From positions 1 to 10,524 of IMG/VR virus record IMGVR_UViG_2609459794_000002: a stretch of DNA of 10,524 bases. One strand, 5' to 3'. The position numbers and the translations under genes were made by a program. Each line of letters starts with the position of its first letter. The first letter of the stretch is position 1. This DNA comes from a virus. Its lineage: Duplodnaviria; Heunggongvirae; Uroviricota; Caudoviricetes. The notes under the pieces are model-generated. The model saw only the letters and a list, made by a program, of their open reading frames with translations, was not told the DNA's origin and ran no database searches. Positions 1,989 to 10,524 of the stretch are shown here, piece after piece.

Positions 1989-2274
1989 CCATTACAAAGC
2001 CTATCTACGGGTGGGCTTGATAATGGCTTATACCCTACACGGGATAACTTAACTGATATCCCTTTTAAAGGATAAAGGTATTCAAGCCTGACACATCATG
2101 CGCTGTATCGTCGCCGTATTCCCGTATTAACAGAGACCGTAGCCCGACGGGGAACTCCTTCTGCGCGAGTGTGTGGGAATAATCAAAAACGATGCACACC
2201 GGGGTTACCGGGTACACATATTTCATCATGCCAGCGAGTCCGGTTCTGGCACGGAAGAAACCGGACGTTATGAT

Positions 2275-2685
2275 TTAGTGCGGAAATATTTGTGTAGTGT
2301 TCTGAATGTTCTCAGTAAAGAGTAATGAATTATCAAAGGTATAGTAATACCTTTTGTTTTCGTGGATATTTGTAATCCATCTGAAAACCCCTGCAGTAGC
2401 AAGATTTTTCCTGTATTCGTAAAATGATAACTCTCCTGATTTGAATCCTTTTAAGGTGGCTTCTATAAGGCATTTATTTTTTGAAAATCTTACATTTACA
2501 ACCTTACCCTGTCCTTTTATTAAAACCGTATTATCGTTTTCAAGAACAAGATGAATATTCTCTGTAGCTAAATAGTAAATGTAATGTGAGACATTGTGAC
2601 GTTTTAGTTCAGAATAAAACCAGTGATAGTTTAAATTATTTCGCACTTTATCGAATATTTGTTTAAAAATGGCAACCTGAGCCAT
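2275..2685 (-). CDS. AT-rich hypothetical protein, YdfO/YbcV-like (DUF1398-like, from memory), function unknown
   Basis: Minus-strand ORF. The ORF track starts at 2700, but the Met at 2685 (MAQVAIF...) has a GGAAGG Shine-Dalgarno-like motif about 9 nt upstream, giving 136 aa. The coding DNA is visibly AT-rich (roughly one-third GC by eye) compared with the flanking lambda-like DNA. Confidence 0.65.
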
Positions 2686-2741
2686 TGTAGTACCTTCCAT
2701 GTGATATGAGGGGCGTAGTCTGCACGATTATCTAAATTGCT

Positions 2742-2975
2742 TCAATCTGGTCTGATCTGTTTTCTGAGCAATTCAGTAATGTCACTCTTTTCTTTGTTTG
2801 CTTCAGGAGAAACTCTTTTTTCTGAGCACAGTCTCCGGCGGCAGGCTTCAATGACCCAGGCTGAGAAATTCCCGGACCCTTTTTGATCAAGAGCGATGTT
2901 AATTTGTTCAATCATTTGGTTAGGAAAGCGGATGTTGCGGATTGTTGTTCTGCGGGTTCTGTTCTTCGTTGACAT
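2742..2975 (-). CDS. Small ribbon-helix-helix (Arc/CopG-like) DNA-binding protein, YnfO/YlcI-like
   Basis: 77 aa. TTIRNIRFPNQMIEQINIALDQKGSGNFSAWVIEACRRRL fits a beta-strand / helix / G-x-S turn / helix RHH layout. It lies immediately upstream of, and on the same strand as, the AT-rich 136-aa gene. Confidence 0.6.
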   Translation of the reverse strand: MSTKNRTRRTTIRNIRFPNQMIEQINIALDQKGSGNFSAWVIEACRRRLCSEKRVSPEANKEKSDITELLRKQIRPD

Positions 2976-3119
2976 GAGGTTGTCCCGTATTCAGTGTCGC
3001 TGATTTGTATTGTCTGAAGTTGTTTTTACGTTAAGTTGATGCAGATCAATTAATATGATACCTGCGTCATAATTGATTATTTGACGTGGTTTGATGGCGT
3101 AGATGCACGTTGTGACATG

Positions 3120-3363
3120 CAGATGATAATTATTATCATTTTGCGGGTCCTTTCCGGCGATCCGACAGGTTACGGGGCGGCGACCTCGCGGGTTTTCGCT
3201 ATTTATGAAAATTTTCCGGTTTAAGGCGTTTCCGTTCTTCTTCGCCGTAACTTAATGTTTTTATTTAAAACACCCCCTGAAAAGAAAGGAAACGACAGGT
3301 GCTGAAAACGGGCTTTTTGGCCTCTGTCGTTTCCTTTCTCTGTTTTTGTCCGTGGAATGAACA
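3120..3363. other. cos: Lambda-type cos site (cosQ-cosN-cosB), with the cosN 12-nt cohesive-end sequence GGGCGGCGACCT at 3175-3186
   Basis: The sequence ...GATCCGACAGGTTACG|GGGCGGCGACCT|CGCGGGTTTTCGCTATTTATGAAAATTTTCCGG... matches the lambda right-end/left-end junction as I recall it. Nu1 starts about 190 bp downstream, as in lambda. Confidence 0.8.
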
Positions 3364-3883
3364 ATGGAAGTCAACAAAAAGCAGCTGGCTGACATTTTCG
3401 GTGCGAGTATCCGTACCATTCAGAACTGGCAGGAGCAGGGAATGCCCGTTCTGCGAGGCGGTGGGAAGGGTAATGAGGTGCTTTATGACTCTGCCACCGT
3501 CATAAAATGGTATGCCGAAAGGGATGCTGAAATTGAGAACGAAAAGCTGCGCCGGGAGGTTGAAGAACTGCGGCAGGCCAGCGAGACAGATCTGCAGCCA
3601 GGGACTATTGAGTACGAACGCCATCGACTTACGCGTGCGCAGGCCGACGCACAGGAGCTGAAGAATGCCAGAGACTCCGCTGAAGTGGTGGAAACCGCAT
3701 TCTGTACTTTCGTGCTGTCGCGGATCGCAGGTGAAATTGCCAGTATTCTCGACGGGATCCCCCTGTCGGTGCAGCGGCGTTTTCCGGAACTGGAAAACCG
3801 ACATGTTGATTTCCTGAAACGGGATATCATCAAAGCCATGAACAAAGCAGCCGCGCTGGATGAACTGATACCGGGGTTGCTGA

Positions 3884-3909
<26 letters not shown>
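3364..3909 (+). CDS. nu1: Terminase small subunit Nu1
   Basis: 181 aa, MEVNKKQLADIFGASIRTIQNWQEQGMPVLRGGGKGNEVLYDS..., near-identical to lambda gpNu1 as recalled, with the N-terminal winged-HTH region. Lambda-like overlap with A. Confidence 0.95.
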
Positions 3910-6890
<2,981 letters not shown>

Positions 6891-6966
6891 AACCCTTGCT
6901 GCGTCTGGAATGTCGTTTTCCATGCTTTTGATGACCGTTCATCACCCTTCCAGTTTTTCGCGGTTT

Positions 6967-7020
6967 TGTGTATTGCAATGTGTATTGCAAATTGGCGATC
7001 GGGATGGGTGTGTATTGCAA
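6967..7020 (+). repeat. Three direct copies of TGTGTATTGCAA (6967-6978, 6979-6990, 7009-7020) immediately upstream of the integrase gene
   Basis: Read directly: two perfect tandem 12-mers plus a third copy 18 bp downstream, ending 18 bp before the int ATG. Confidence 0.85.
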
Positions 7021-7038
7021 ATCTCTTGAGGGCTTTTA

Positions 7039-8280
7039 ATGGCTATTGAAAACAAACTCAGTGACAAACTGTTAAAGAGTCTTGTCGGAAAACGGCAGGA
7101 CAAACAAAAAACAATAGCGGATGGGCGCGGGTTGTCTGTGCGTGTAAGCATGGTTGGGGGGATCAGCTTTGTTTTTTACTATCGTCTTGGTGGCAGGGAA
7201 TCCCCTCCGGTATGGCTTACACTTGGTCGCTATCCTGACATGTCTCTTGCAACGGCCAGGCGCATGCGTGATCAGTGCCGTGAATGGCTGGCTGAAAATC
7301 TGGACCCCCGCAGGCAAATAAAACTTGCTGCCGAAAAAACTATGCAACCAGTGACCGTAAGGGATGCGCTGTTTTACTGGTACGACAATCACGCCACAAC
7401 AGCCAGAAAAGAGCATGAATATTTAATAAAACGATTTGAAAAGCATATCTTCCCCTATATCGGTGATATGGCTATAGAACAGTGCAAATTACACACATGG
7501 CTTACCGTCTTTGACAGGATCAAAAAAAATGCGCCTGTTATGTCTGGTGCAATTTTTCTTGATATCAAACAGGCGTTGCGTTTTTGTCGCGTCAGGCAAT
7601 ACATCGCGTGCGATCCCTTTGGAGATATTAACGTAAGTTATGTCGGGCGCTCATCCGGTATAAGGGATCGCGTTCTTAATATCAATGAAACCGCTGATGT
7701 ATGGTCTTATGCTTACGGTAATAATTTGCTAACTCTGTCATCAATATATAACCGAAGAATAATGGTTATCTGCCTGGTGTTTGGTTGCCGACAGCAGGAG
7801 GCGAGGCTATCCACCTGGGACGAATGGGATTTAAAAAACTGGGTATGGACAGTCCCAAAAGAGCACAGCAAAAACAAGGAGGCTATAGTAAGGCCTGTTC
7901 CTGACGGAATAAAACAATGGATCGTTAATCTTTACGCAGAAACAAAAAATCGCGGTTATGTTGTCGGTTGTGCTTTGCAAAGGGCGACAATAACAGGGGC
8001 TGCAAACAGAATATGCAGGCGTCTTGGTCATGATACTAATGGCTTGTGGTGCATACATGATTTCAGGCGCACATTTTCCACTACGCTTAATGATATGGGG
8101 GCGGATCCTTATATTGTCGAACTTCTTTTAGGTCATAAAGTGAAAGGGGTTGCTGGTGTTTACAATAAAAGCAGGCATATAAAGAAAAAACTTGAGGTGC
8201 TTAATATGTGGGTTAATTACCTTAATACGATAGCAGGATTTAACAACAACGTTATCGAGCTTAATAAAGAGGTGGTGTGA
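7039..8280 (+). CDS. int: Tyrosine recombinase / phage integrase (P4-like family)
   Basis: 413 aa. N-terminal arm-binding-like region (IADGRGLSVRV...FVFYYRLGGRE...LTLGRYPDMSLATARRMRDQ...LDP). C-terminal catalytic signatures: IHDFRRT (His-x-x-Arg), LLGH, and a Tyr in GVYNKS. GAGGG Shine-Dalgarno 7 nt upstream. Confidence 0.9.
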   Translation: MAIENKLSDKLLKSLVGKRQDKQKTIADGRGLSVRVSMVGGISFVFYYRLGGRESPPVWLTLGRYPDMSLATARRMRDQCREWLAENLDPRRQIKLAAEKTMQPVTVRDALFYWYDNHATTARKEHEYLIKRFEKHIFPYIGDMAIEQCKLHTWLTVFDRIKKNAPVMSGAIFLDIKQALRFCRVRQYIACDPFGDINVSYVGRSSGIRDRVLNINETADVWSYAYGNNLLTLSSIYNRRIMVICLVFGCRQQEARLSTWDEWDLKNWVWTVPKEHSKNKEAIVRPVPDGIKQWIVNLYAETKNRGYVVGCALQRATITGAANRICRRLGHDTNGLWCIHDFRRTFSTTLNDMGADPYIVELLLGHKVKGVAGVYNKSRHIKKKLEVLNMWVNYLNTIAGFNNNVIELNKEVV

Positions 8281-8281
8281 T

Positions 8282-8539
8282 ATGGCAATTTATTCTCTTG
8301 TTGATGAAAACGATTTGCGCACAATGAAGGACATTGATCGGTTCATTCGTGAAAAAGAGTGCATAGCACTTACCACGCTGGCAAACTCAACACGCTGGAA
8401 AATGGAGCAGGCAGGTAAATTCCCGCGACGTATCAAGATCGGTGAACGTGCTGCAGGGTATCGACTTTCAGAGGTTCAGGCATGGATCCGTGGTGAGTGG
8501 CATCCTGGGTGGAAACCTGGAAAAACAAAACAGCAATAA
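8282..8539 (+). CDS. alpA: AlpA-family transcriptional regulator / excisionase-like protein
   Basis: 85 aa starting 1 nt after the int stop. LANSTRWKMEQAGKFPRRIKIGERAAGYRLSEVQAWIR fits the AlpA / MerR-like excisionase HTH pattern. Confidence 0.75.
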   Translation: MAIYSLVDENDLRTMKDIDRFIREKECIALTTLANSTRWKMEQAGKFPRRIKIGERAAGYRLSEVQAWIRGEWHPGWKPGKTKQQ

Positions 8540-8552
8540 CCAGTAAATAATG

Positions 8553-8575
8553 CCCCTCATCACGAGGGGTTTTTT
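8553..8575 (+). terminator. Rho-independent terminator after alpA
   Basis: Perfect hairpin CCCCTC-ATCAC-GAGGGG (8553-8569) followed by TTTTTT. Confidence 0.7.
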
Positions 8576-8595
8576 GTCTATAAGGTAAAAACGCG

Positions 8596-9174
8596 ATGAA
8601 TAAAAATATTGCCGTGACGGGCAAGGGGTACGCTCGTCCAGTGAAAAAATTCTGCGATATTCGTGATCTCGTCGTTCTGCGCTTTGATAGTGTGAACGTT
8701 CGTGTGGTGTATCTGAACGGCGATCCGTGGTTTGTTGCAAAAGATGTTTGTGCTGCGCTGGAACTAACCAATTCGCGTACGGCGTTGCAGATGCTTGATG
8801 ATGATGAAAAGGGAGTAAATTTAACTTACACCCCAGGAGGAAATCAGAATATGAGAATTATCTCTGAGTCAGGTTTCTACAAACTAATAGCCCGCAGCCG
8901 CAAAGCAACGACGCCTGGCACATTTGCTCATCGTTTCAGTAACTGGGTATTCAGAAATGTGATACCAGGTATCAGAAAAACGGGGACTTATGGTATCCCG
9001 TGGGGTGCATTACAGGTTTTTCCCCGCCGTAAAGAGCAATATCAAATAAGTGCCAGCGAGAAGGGGAGGGAGCTACAGGCATGTAAGCGCAAAAAGCGTG
9101 AGCTGGAGGAAGAAGAAAAAACGCTGATACGTGAATATCAGCCTGAGTTTTACTTTGGTAACCGCATTCAGTGA
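8596..9174 (+). CDS. Bro-N domain protein (phage antirepressor-like)
   Basis: 192 aa. DPWFVAKDVCAALELTNSRTALQMLDDDEKG...RIISESGFYKLIARSRKATTPGTFAHRFSNWVFRNVIPGIRKTGTY fits the Bro-N consensus. The C-terminus is charged and coiled-coil-like (KRKKRELEEEEKTLIRE). Confidence 0.8.
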   Translation: MNKNIAVTGKGYARPVKKFCDIRDLVVLRFDSVNVRVVYLNGDPWFVAKDVCAALELTNSRTALQMLDDDEKGVNLTYTPGGNQNMRIISESGFYKLIARSRKATTPGTFAHRFSNWVFRNVIPGIRKTGTYGIPWGALQVFPRRKEQYQISASEKGRELQACKRKKRELEEEEKTLIREYQPEFYFGNRIQ

Positions 9175-9203
9175 CAAAACAAAGGCGACCGCAAAAGGGT
9201 CGC
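9174..9203 (-). terminator. Terminator-like hairpin between convergent genes, oriented for the minus-strand transcript
   Basis: Perfect 7-bp stem GGCGACC / GGTCGCC with a 7-nt loop (9183-9203). On the minus strand it is followed by TTTGTTTTG. It lies between the Bro-N stop and the stop of the minus-strand 59-aa ORF. Confidence 0.45.
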
Positions 9204-9270
9204 CAGTGGGAACAAGGGAAAACAAAAGCATCACCAACAATGCCACATTTGCGGCTGGTGGGCAATGTGA

Positions 9271-9450
9271 TCAGTCAGATTTGGTTCGTTCCAAGGTTTG
9301 CAACGAGAGCTTTTTCCTGTGCTCTTTAAGGAATTTCTCAAGAGCAAACGAACAAGGTGCGAATCTTTCTGATTCATGTTCATGCGCTATATTTTTGCGT
9401 CGTCTCTTACGAGTTGGTGATGGTGTTTTGGTTGATTCTGTGTCGCTCAT
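9271..9450 (-). CDS. Small highly basic hypothetical protein (59 aa), not in the supplied ORF track
   Basis: Hand translation of the minus strand: MSDTESTKTPSPTRKRRRKNIAHEHESERFAPCSFALEKFLKEHRKKLSLQTLERTKSD. AGGA 8 nt upstream of the ATG. Lies 57 nt downstream of the 101-aa gene on the same strand and is followed by the convergent hairpin. Confidence 0.4.
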   Translation of the reverse strand: MSDTESTKTPSPTRKRRRKNIAHEHESERFAPCSFALEKFLKEHRKKLSLQTLERTKSD

Positions 9451-9507
9451 GGTGCTGTCCTGTAAAGCAATGCGCCTGCGTTCCTCAAACTATGGCGCTG
9501 ATATTGG

Positions 9508-9813
9508 CTATTCATGCTCTTTGACCTTGCGTCGCTGGAGTTCTTCACGCGCGACGGTGACGAGTTGCCCGATCTCCTCGGCTGCTTTGATGCCGATTTG
9601 TTCGACCTTAGCCAGGGCATCCAGTGACGACACAAGGGGATTTTCTCCGCTGCCTTCTGCTTGGCGGCGGGCTATTTCTCCGCGCATGGCGGTTACGATA
9701 AATCCGGCATTGCTTTCACCGTCCAGCTTAACGGATTCCATCCCTTGCATAACATCTAGTGGGACTCTGACAGTTGTCAGTTGTGATTTTGCGTTTTTGT
9801 TAGCCGTTGCCAT
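9508..9813 (-). CDS. Hypothetical regulator with an RHH-like N-terminus (101 aa)
   Basis: GGAG Shine-Dalgarno 9 nt upstream of the ATG. TTVRVPLDVMQGMESVKLDGESNAGFIVTAMRGEIARR resembles a ribbon-helix-helix fold. Transcribed divergently from the operator region. Confidence 0.55.
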   Translation of the reverse strand: MATANKNAKSQLTTVRVPLDVMQGMESVKLDGESNAGFIVTAMRGEIARRQAEGSGENPLVSSLDALAKVEQIGIKAAEEIGQLVTVAREELQRRKVKEHE

Positions 9814-9834
9814 TTCTGAAACTCCTAATCATCG

Positions 9835-9912
9835 GTGTGTTTCAGTATACACAAAAAAAGAAATACAAAAAGCCTTGACGTGTGTTTCATGCGCTCATAA
9901 CATGAAACACAC
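9835..9912. promoter_or_regulatory. Divergent promoter/operator region: perfect 12-bp inverted repeat with 9-bp spacer (9880-9912), a third half-site at 9836-9845, and candidate -35/-10 elements
   Basis: GTGTGTTTCATG (9880-9891) and CATGAAACACAC (9901-9912) form the palindrome. TTGACG (9875-9880) with a 17-bp spacer to TAACAT (9898-9903) is a candidate plus-strand promoter overlapped by the palindrome. The minus strand has a TATACT -10-like hexamer next to the third half-site. Confidence 0.55.
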
Positions 9913-10003
9913 CGAAAGGATTGTTGAAATACAAAGAGCAACGCCCCGCAGTGCTGGGAACACATACGGGGCGTCTAACCAACAACGTAAACTAGGAGCC
10001 GTT

Positions 10004-10177
10004 ATGGTTGCTGTAAATCATATACCACACCTTGTACACACACAAACGGCCTTTGTGTGGCGTTTTCTGGCACTGAGTGCCGGAGAATCTCAAATCATCC
10101 ACGTAACCGCCTGGACGGAACGCGAAGCGCGTAGCCGTTGCCCGTCCGGTTGTGTTGCTGTATTCGCTGCAAAAATC
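10004..10177 (+). pseudogene. 5' part of an unknown gene, apparently interrupted by the IS1 insertion
   Basis: ATG at 10004 preceded by AGGAG with a 5-nt spacer. The ORF (MVAVNHIPHLVHTQTAFVWRFLALSAGESQIIHVTAWTEREARSRCPSGCVAVFAAKI) runs straight into the IS1 terminal inverted repeat at 10178. Confidence 0.4.
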
Positions 10178-10524
10178 GGTAATGACTCCAACTTATTGAT
10201 AGTGTTTTATGTTCAGATAATGCCCGATGACTTTGTCATGCAGCTCCACCGATTTTGAGAACGACAGCGACTTCCGTCCCAGCCGTGCCAGGTGCTGCCT
10301 CAGATTCAGGTTATGCCGCTCAATTCGCTGCGTATATCGCTTGCTGATTACGTGCAGCTTTCCCTTCAGGCGGGATTCATACAGCGGCCAGCCATCCGTC
10401 ATCCATATCACCACGTCAAAGGGTGACAGCAGGCTCATAAGACGCCCCAGCGTCGCCATAGTGCGTTCACCGAATACGTGCGCAACAACCGTCTTCCGGA
10501 GCCTGTCATACGCGTAAAACAGCC
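10178..10524 (-). mobile_element. IS1 insertion sequence, partial (right end inward; continues past the window edge)
   Basis: Begins with the IS1 terminal inverted repeat GGTAATGACTCCAACTTATTGATAGTG. The minus-strand translation is the InsB C-terminus (...[109 protein letters not shown]). Confidence 0.9.
10193..10524 (-). CDS. insB: IS1 transposase InsB, C-terminal part (N-terminus outside the window)
   Basis: The minus-strand frame is continuous from the window edge through the track ORF 10193..10459. Sequence recognised as IS1 InsB. Confidence 0.8.

Follow-up and report, generated by a model that had tools for sequence, protein, structure and literature searches.

An IS1 insertion in the icd-like gene of a putative helper-embedded PICI has probably cut off the operon downstream

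The stretch of DNA analyzed here (10,524 nt, referred to as the window) comes from a Caudoviricetes record, IMGVR_UViG_2609459794_000002, and ends inside an IS1 element. The explanation that we favor, and consider likely as a whole, is that IS1 inserted into the 3′ end of an icd-like gene belonging to a helper-embedded PICI of the EcCICFT073 type, and that the operon headed by this gene was thereby cut off. Each component is already known: IS1, the Icd-like protein family, PICIs, and the helper-embedded configuration are all described kinds, and it is nothing unusual for an insertion sequence to disrupt a prophage-satellite composite that is already decaying. Insertions of IS1 into prophages and satellites are seen often and, on their own, matter little. 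What the window offers is a clean illustration of one way for a helper-embedded satellite to become immobilized: int and alpA are intact, while the replication and late genes would be cut off through the presumed polarity of IS1.

The interrupted gene was read directly from the sequence. A Shine-Dalgarno motif (AGGAG, 9994-9998, plus strand) is followed by a 5-nt spacer (CGTTA, 9999-10003) and an ATG at 10004-10006, from which 58 codons run to 10177, in agreement with the coordinates given in the preliminary description of this DNA. The 58-aa fragment (10004-10177, plus strand) matches the NCBIfam family NF033153, "host cell division inhibitor Icd-like," with 60.1 bits (E = 1.6e-16), against a curated cutoff of 25 bits, and covers profile positions 1-46 of 48. 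Identical but uninterrupted DNA is found in complete Escherichia coli genomes, where its annotated product is an Icd-like protein of 65 aa (WP_001390072.1; loci L001 and L008), and this intact allele scores 63.7 bits. Positions 9800-10177 are 100% identical to the annotated loci, 131 complete E. coli genomes cover at least 80% of this interval, and the intact 65-aa protein sequence occurs on at least 1,000 contigs. The family match and the identical full-length allele bear out the earlier proposal that a genuine ORF was interrupted by IS1. The early stop that the preliminary description had contemplated, upstream of 10178, is absent from the homologues, whose stop codon lies 22-24 nt past the insertion point. 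By homology, then, the ORF at 10004 is a real gene of the Icd-like family, which we also describe as P4-Kil-like, encoding codons 1-58 of 65. Inhibition of host cell division is a putative activity that the protein carries in its name by homology only. No relative of known structure was found for the Icd-like protein or for the YlcI/YnfO-family protein encoded next to it.

The intact gene is 65 codons long. It shares 8 nt with the next gene, its stop codon overlapping the ATG of the following cistron (ATGCTTAA); a 61-aa gene (MLKTFRVFARAVN...) lies downstream. Comparison of the intact allele with the window places the insertion point between codon 58 (ATC) and codon 59 (CGC), where the intact allele reads ...GCAAAAATC|CGCCAGGG.... 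The truncation proposed earlier is correct, with a shift of emphasis: IS1 does interrupt the ORF at 10178, but just seven codons (RQGVSHA) and the stop are lost, and 58 of the 65 codons are kept.

The right end of IS1 starts at 10178 with the sequence GGTAATGACTCCAACTTATTGAT and extends for 347 bp, to the end of the window (10178-10524, minus strand). It shares 346 of 347 positions with K-12 IS1A and matches IS1A/IS1B copies annotated in complete E. coli genomes at 100% identity. In the alignment with K-12 IS1A, 10178 falls on the annotated outer end of the element, to the left of which the sequences are unrelated. The terminal inverted repeat (GGTAATGACTCC...), at 10178-10200, lies exactly at the element boundary; repeat and boundary equal those of K-12 IS1A, which confirms the terminal inverted repeat that had been recognized at 10178 from the window alone. 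Full-length IS1 measures 768 bp, and the part present in the window is the right-hand 45%. On the minus strand, 10193-10522 is free of stop codons and encodes the C-terminal 109 residues of InsB, as judged from its translation and from annotated copies; this part of insB (10193-10524) has its stop codon at 10193-10195 and remains open to the end of the window. Both insA and insB read leftwards, toward the icd-like gene, with insA located past the window end. The element is common: 4,958 of 5,426 complete E. coli genomes match at least 80% of the 347-bp segment.

Across the junction, the icd-like frame stays open for 26 IS1 codons (10178-10258, plus strand, ending with TGA at 10256-10258), yielding an 84-aa fusion ORF. 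Six ENA metagenome contigs, drawn from several projects, carry a call for this exact product, which was found nowhere else. All six contigs span 10177/10178 at an identity of at least 99.7% and end 84-139 nt into IS1; the window likewise ends inside IS1, 347 bp in. A megablast search of the 5,426 complete E. coli genomes returned no junction at 80% coverage or above, and the exact left-junction pattern had no matches in genome_contigs, IMG/VR, or JGI metagenomes. The junction is real and is present in more than one sample. Its sequence can serve as a lineage marker, being carried by six metagenome assemblies and by none of the complete E. coli genomes.

The genomic context of the insertion was read from a closely related uninterrupted copy. 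Positions 2152-10177 of the window are collinear with positions 7395-15420 of L008 (E. coli LR-51) at 99.0% identity without gaps, and collinearity breaks off precisely at 10177. To the left of the island, L008 carries lysis genes, Nu1/nohD, the terminase large subunit, gpW, and an N-terminal portal fragment. The island then begins with an integrase gene, followed by genes for an AlpA-type HTH protein, a Bro-N protein, a YlcI/YnfO protein (on the minus strand), the Icd-like protein, three small ORFs, which overlap in intact copies, and DUF4222. A 584-aa primase, a hypothetical protein, SSB, a major capsid protein, a head decoration protein, an HTH protein, a TerS-like protein, and a further hypothetical protein complete the island; to its right lie the C-terminal portal fragment, an S49 peptidase, and a decoration protein. 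The inserted element measures about 10.7 kb and shows gene-for-gene synteny with the CFT073 island located between roxA and phoQ. In the window itself, the integrase gene (Arm-DNA-bind_3 and Phage_integrase domains, 7039-8280) and the Phage_AlpA domain (8282-8539) form the left end of the island and are co-oriented with it.

This gene order agrees with several surmises of the preliminary description. The satellite-like island suspected there corresponds to an EcCICFT073-type PICI with the same synteny in CFT073. The rightward operon has the icd-like gene as the first cistron of a co-oriented run in L008, which is 99% identical to the window up to the junction. The replication genes that had been guessed to follow are represented in L008 by DUF4222, primase, and SSB, and are succeeded there by capsid, decoration, and TerS-like genes.

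The left end of the island was located by comparison of portal fragments. The intact portal gene of L001 overlaps both portal fragments of L008 by a 13-bp core, AAGGCGAT(G/T)TATG, and the gene is split at positions ~236-241 of the Pfam Phage_portal_2 profile. In the window, the corresponding attL core, AAGGCGATTTATG, lies at 6831-6843 (plus strand), at the junction of the PICI with the split portal gene; the last base of the portal fragment is 6843, and int begins at 7039. The portal fragment of the window also contains a premature stop, in the form of a nonsense codon. From sequence comparison, the island is best described as an EcCICFT073-type PICI residing, co-oriented, in the portal gene of a DLP12-like lambdoid prophage, that is, as a helper-embedded PICI. 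Helper-embedded PICIs reside within late genes of lambdoid prophages and share the orientation of these genes, and one of their site groups is B:Phage_portal_2:241 (PMC10111431). The profile coordinates of the split suggest that the present site belongs to the group B:Phage_portal_2:~241. The resemblance to the described elements includes the split lambdoid portal gene, the 13-bp core, the co-orientation, and, from the L008 gene order, the division into four zones (integration, Bro, replication, and late). Unlike in the elements described, IS1 here separates the Bro zone from the replication zone, and the host portal fragment contains a nonsense codon. The host portal gene is therefore doubly broken, which indicates that helper and satellite are decaying together.

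EcCICFT073 is the model Gram-negative PICI; it carries capsid (c1499) and decoration (c1500) homologues, its induction depends on AlpA, and pri-rep is needed for efficient transfer (Fillol-Salom et al. 2018, PMC6092414). The present island shares with it the order int, alpA, YlcI/YnfO (minus strand), Icd-like, small ORFs, DUF4222, primase, SSB, capsid, and decoration, where the segment from primase to decoration was read in L008, the corresponding region of the window lying past IS1. The control region is also alignable between the two. EcCICFT073 lies between the chromosomal genes roxA and phoQ, whereas the present island is inside a prophage; EcCICFT073 further differs in its operator repeats, integrase, and accessory genes, and contains no IS1.

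Upstream of the icd-like gene, a consensus scan identified a sigma-70-like promoter (TTGACG, a 17-nt spacer, and TAACAT; 9875-9903, plus strand) about 100 nt 5′ of the gene. Half-site repeats of the form GTGTGTTTCA / TGAAACACAC overlap this promoter, at 9832-9844, 9880-9891, and 9901-9915. Between the promoter and the ribosome-binding site lies a predicted leader hairpin (9941-9974, plus strand), with the arms ACGCCCCG and CGGGGCGT separated by an 18-nt loop. In EcCICFT073, the -35 hexamer is conserved and the hairpin is preserved with one compensatory change (C-G to A-T), whereas the repeats differ, a pattern expected of a regulator-specific operator. An operator-controlled promoter driving the icd-like gene is thus a plausible prediction. 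A candidate regulator of the shared control region is encoded divergently by the YlcI/YnfO-family gene (9508-9813, minus strand; 101 aa; NF041551, 63 bits), whose product would bind DNA, judging by the appearance of its sequence. A leader-encoded immunity RNA of the C4, CI, or isrK type was considered and dropped: no Rfam immunity RNA (C4, isrK, or any other) was detected at E ≤ 1 over the whole window or at E ≤ 10 over 9820-10180, and the fold of the leader is ordinary, its overall folding energy being not unusual relative to shuffled sequences (z = -0.69).

Transposition of IS1 duplicates a 9-bp target. Together with the intact allele, this rule predicts GCAAAAATC, at 10169-10177, as the target site. 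A simple insertion would then have produced, past the window, the left end of IS1 (...GTTGGCAGCATCACC), a second copy of GCAAAAATC, and CGCCAGGGAGTGAGTCATGC, such that the copy beyond the left end would run into CGCCAGGGAGTG.... Under this reading, the 3′ end of the PICI's icd-like gene would have been the target of an IS1 transposition, and the rest of the island presumably still lies beyond IS1. A right junction of the predicted form, with the left end of IS1, 6-12 nt, and CGCCAGGGAGTGAGTCATGC, had no matches in JGI metagenomes, genome_contigs, or IMG/VR, an absence that is uninformative, given that the left junction is missing from the same collections too.

The most serious competitor, which we regard as unlikely though still worth weighing, is that IS1 marks the boundary of a rearrangement in which the adjacent DNA was deleted or inverted, either following insertion or through recombination with a second copy of IS1, leaving the part from primase to TerS, and perhaps the rest of the prophage, gone or elsewhere. 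The failure to recover the expected right junction and its duplication from the collections searched fits such an event, as does the state of the surrounding prophage, which was already decaying, with a premature stop in its portal fragment; moreover, a median of about 10 IS1 matches per E. coli genome would provide ample recombination partners. Against it, the missing right junction carries no weight for the reason given above, and short-read assemblies always break in IS1. The left junction, in addition, is a clean IS1 terminus on an otherwise unaltered target, as in plain transposition.

If IS1 was acquired by transposition, as we favor, its effects would fall unequally on the gene and on the operon. 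The last seven residues of the Icd-like protein would be swapped for 26 residues encoded by IS1. The truncated protein may still be active, since 46 of the 48 conserved profile positions are kept, and the retention of 58 of 65 codons indicates that the main damage lies downstream of the icd-like gene and not in the protein. Ribosomes translating the fusion would stop 78 nt into IS1, and 0.8 kb of IS1, antisense to insB, would now stand 16 nt 5′ of the ATG of the next cistron, so that the translational coupling of the two genes would be broken. Transcripts from the upstream promoter would have to traverse this untranslated antisense segment. Classically, an IS1 insertion exerts strong polarity whichever way it faces, mainly by way of Rho. 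On this ground, the small ORFs, DUF4222, primase, SSB, and the late genes would be cut off from the promoter at 9875-9903. By analogy with classical IS1 genetics, the primase, SSB, and late genes, if still present, are probably silenced, although internal promoters downstream of IS1 may exist. The genes int and alpA lie upstream of IS1 and are intact. The satellite would accordingly still express both, presumably with loss of efficient replication after induction. Deletion of pri-rep in EcCICFT073 lowers transfer ~100-fold (Fillol-Salom et al. 2018, PMC6092414), and for this reason the present satellite is probably crippled and not merely altered. The insertion would represent one step in mobile-element decay.

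A regulatory or adaptive insertion, in which an outward IS1 promoter frees the replication genes from their operator or a toxic Icd/Kil-replication module is disarmed, seems improbable to us. IS1 does create hybrid promoters in some contexts, and the allele persists in several samples with a few SNP differences. Uncontrolled PICI replication also harms the cell (Fillol-Salom 2018, PMC6092414). Nevertheless, no promoter-like site was found on the plus strand inside IS1 in its present orientation, on which basis an outward promoter for the downstream genes was rejected. The hybrid promoter predicted at the junction (TTGGCA, 17 nt, CGCCAG) would have a poor -10 hexamer. The absence of the allele from the 5,426 complete E. 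coli genomes means that there is no sign of a sweep. An assembly chimera, which the ending of the window inside a multicopy repeat might suggest, or a chance ORF deserves practically no credence and both were rejected, being effectively refuted by the same junction recurring base for base in six separate assemblies and by the family match (E = 1.6e-16) together with the identical annotated intact allele.

Beyond the insertion itself, the analysis assigns the first gene in the rightward operon of E. coli PICIs, the Icd-like one, to one family with icd of phage P1 and kil of P4, and this grouping yields a concrete hypothesis about early control in Gram-negative PICIs. A tblastn search of 50,697 phage records with the 65-aa protein gave a single match, to a 16.5-kb record designated "phage," and detected neither P1 nor P4. 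Kinship to these two is visible via HMM only, with the addition, for P1, of direct pairwise comparison. NF033153 scores are 52.6 bits for P1 Icd, 69.9 bits for the Icd-like protein of EcCICFT073, and 76.1 bits for a 65-aa ORF of P4. P1 Icd (73 aa) and the intact 65-aa protein share 38% identity over 55 aa (E = 6e-8), whereas pairwise BLASTP of P4 Kil with the window protein produced no alignment.

In P1, icd belongs to the immI operon (c4 RNA, icd, and ant1/ant2) and, like the window gene, is a member of NF033153. Both are small first cistrons that follow an early promoter and a leader, and both overlap the start of the next gene: P1 icd overlaps the start of ant1, much as the intact stop codon of the window gene overlaps the next start. 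The P1 record describes icd as "apparently required for expression of ant." The two differ in that the window leader contains no detectable C4-type antisense RNA and in that satellite replication genes lie downstream in the PICI, in contrast to the antirepressor in P1.

In P4, kil is nested in eta within the left operon, which runs from PLE to the alpha primase. P4 Kil is reportedly 65 aa long, equal to the intact window allele. In the P4 sequence, a 214-codon ORF follows vis, its last 65 codons constitute an in-frame ORF from an internal ATG, and its N-terminal part is a Phage_ASH domain. This layout matches the description of eta/kil as a nested gene pair (Tommasini, Mageeney and Williams 2023, PMC10111431). 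The operon order is also P4-like: an alpA/vis homologue, a Bro/Ash-network region, an internal promoter, a small toxic protein, small ORFs, and primase. In P4, too, translation behind the early promoter begins with the gene of this family. By Rfam search, however, the window contains no homologue of the CI or seqA RNA of P4, and its divergent YlcI/YnfO gene lies antisense, which has no counterpart in the P4 annotation.

We tentatively suggest, as a possibility that we would not favor at present, that the short icd-like gene is the nested C-terminal form of a long eta-like frame in E. coli PICIs, constituting a P4-like switch with an embedded antisense repressor gene. Translation of such a frame, which crosses both promoter and leader, would prevent termination. 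If so, IS1 would have cut the common 3′ end of the long and short forms. In the window, the long form is apparently already interrupted, and the idea therefore concerns the family more than the window copy.

As a side observation, the icd-like frame is open far upstream of its ATG. In the window, 292 in-frame codons upstream are open, to 9128, and the corresponding numbers are 199 in L001, 367 in EcCICFT073, 331, 268, and 369 in the further PICIs L014, L015, and L016, 152 in P4, and 9 in L017. In the other two frames, a stop is reached after 1-24 codons, apart from a single case of 91. In four loci, the open frame starts immediately past alpA; for three of these (L014, L015, and L016), the PGAP name for the stretch, which shares the frame of the short gene, is "Icd-like protein, missing C-terminus." Such a pattern would fit an eta/kil-like layout in the family. 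Unlike in P4, however, two features lie between alpA and the in-frame stretch of the window: the Bro-N gene, read in a different frame, and a terminator-like hairpin (GGCGACC...GGTCGCC, 9184-9204). In the window, EcCICFT073, and L014, the open frame runs antisense through the YlcI/YnfO gene with coinciding third codon positions, such that periodicity cannot separate the two frames; YlcI/YnfO itself is clearly coding, with 49 of 79 substitutions relative to L014 falling on third codon positions. Randomization conditional on the antisense proteins gave an overall chance probability of ~3e-4 to 7e-4 for the open frame. Openness over the antisense genes is unsurprising (P = 0.2-0.7), but it is less to be expected over the 190-nt promoter-leader region (P ~0.02). 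The "protein" read from the plus frame is 62% conserved, versus 74% for the DNA.

In sequence comparison, the leader hairpin and the icd-like gene (window 9931-10170) behave together like one recombination module. In many islands of E. coli, this stretch is all that is shared with the window, at 86-97.5% identity. Among these islands are O157:H7 PICIs, whose replication genes are of the RepA-helicase type, and P4-like 'ash' loci; upstream of the shared stretch, the promoter and regulator modules are different. Similarity regularly ends at ~10170, a few bases short of the IS1 insertion point.

Among seven distinct PICI/P4 loci, counting the window and its intact relative from E. coli LR-51 (L008) as one, the frame of the icd-like ATG remains open upstream for 150-370 codons in six. 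In the window, this open frame occupies 9128-10003 on the plus strand; it is also present in loci L011, L014, L015, and L016 and in satellite phage P4 (L013). The stretch directly after alpA carries the PGAP label 'Icd-like, missing C-terminus'. In the window, L014, and the model Gram-negative PICI EcCICFT073, the long frame runs antisense across the YlcI/YnfO gene. It may represent a nested arrangement of the P4 eta/kil type or, alternatively, a shadow ORF. Downstream of the ATG, codons 12-22 of the icd-like gene contain a terminator-like hairpin and T-run (CACACAAACGGCCTTTGTGTG GCGTTTTCTG, 10039-10059). Given that this structure is not kept as a hairpin in EcCICFT073 and that its T-run encodes the conserved FVWRF motif, it is probably incidental.

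The YlcI/YnfO-family protein (MATANKNAKSQLTTVRVPLDVMQGMESVKLDGESNAGFIVTAMRGEIARRQ..., 9508-9813, minus strand) had zero Pfam matches, and a search for relatives of solved structure likewise found none. Inspected by eye, its sequence looks like that of a DNA-binding protein of the ribbon-helix-helix type carrying a coiled-coil tail, and the protein is the obvious candidate to bind the GTGTGTTTCA repeats. Directly past the Bro-N stop lies a stem-loop, GGCGACC-GCAAAAG-GGTCGCC (9184-9204). Because it is followed on the minus strand by TTTGTTTTG, this element looks like the intrinsic terminator that serves the leftward transcription unit ylcI-orf59.

The region directly upstream of the prophage Nu1/nohD gene, where cos is expected (window 3143-3398), has a second copy in intact relatives, located directly upstream of the satellite TerS-like gene and 92-95% identical (L008 21150-21215; 12081-12336 in L001, the related island of strain 104). 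Such a duplication would fit a cos site of the satellite having been copied from the helper type. The satellite lies within the portal gene of the prophage, joined to it at a 13-bp core, AAGGCGAT(G/T)TATG, found at 6831-6843 in the window and at both 12074-12086 and 22786-22798 in L008. The insertion site corresponds to Pfam Phage_portal_2 positions of about 236-241, in agreement with the published HE-PICI site group B:Phage_portal_2:241, whereas the strain 104 island uses the major capsid gene.

To the left of the satellite, the N-terminal fragment of the portal gene (6009-6890) contains a premature stop at 6288-6290, reading RPS*RYLG where the 99%-identical L008 encodes RPSWRYLG, with Trp at that position. 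Precise excision of the satellite would still not give a working portal gene, and the helper prophage is therefore itself defective in this strain. In LR-51, the closest complete genome, an IS3-family element lies within the prophage (L008 6209-7386) that is missing from the window at ~2152, and LR-51 lacks IS1 at the position where the window carries it. The IS3-family element and IS1 are independent hits on the same composite element.
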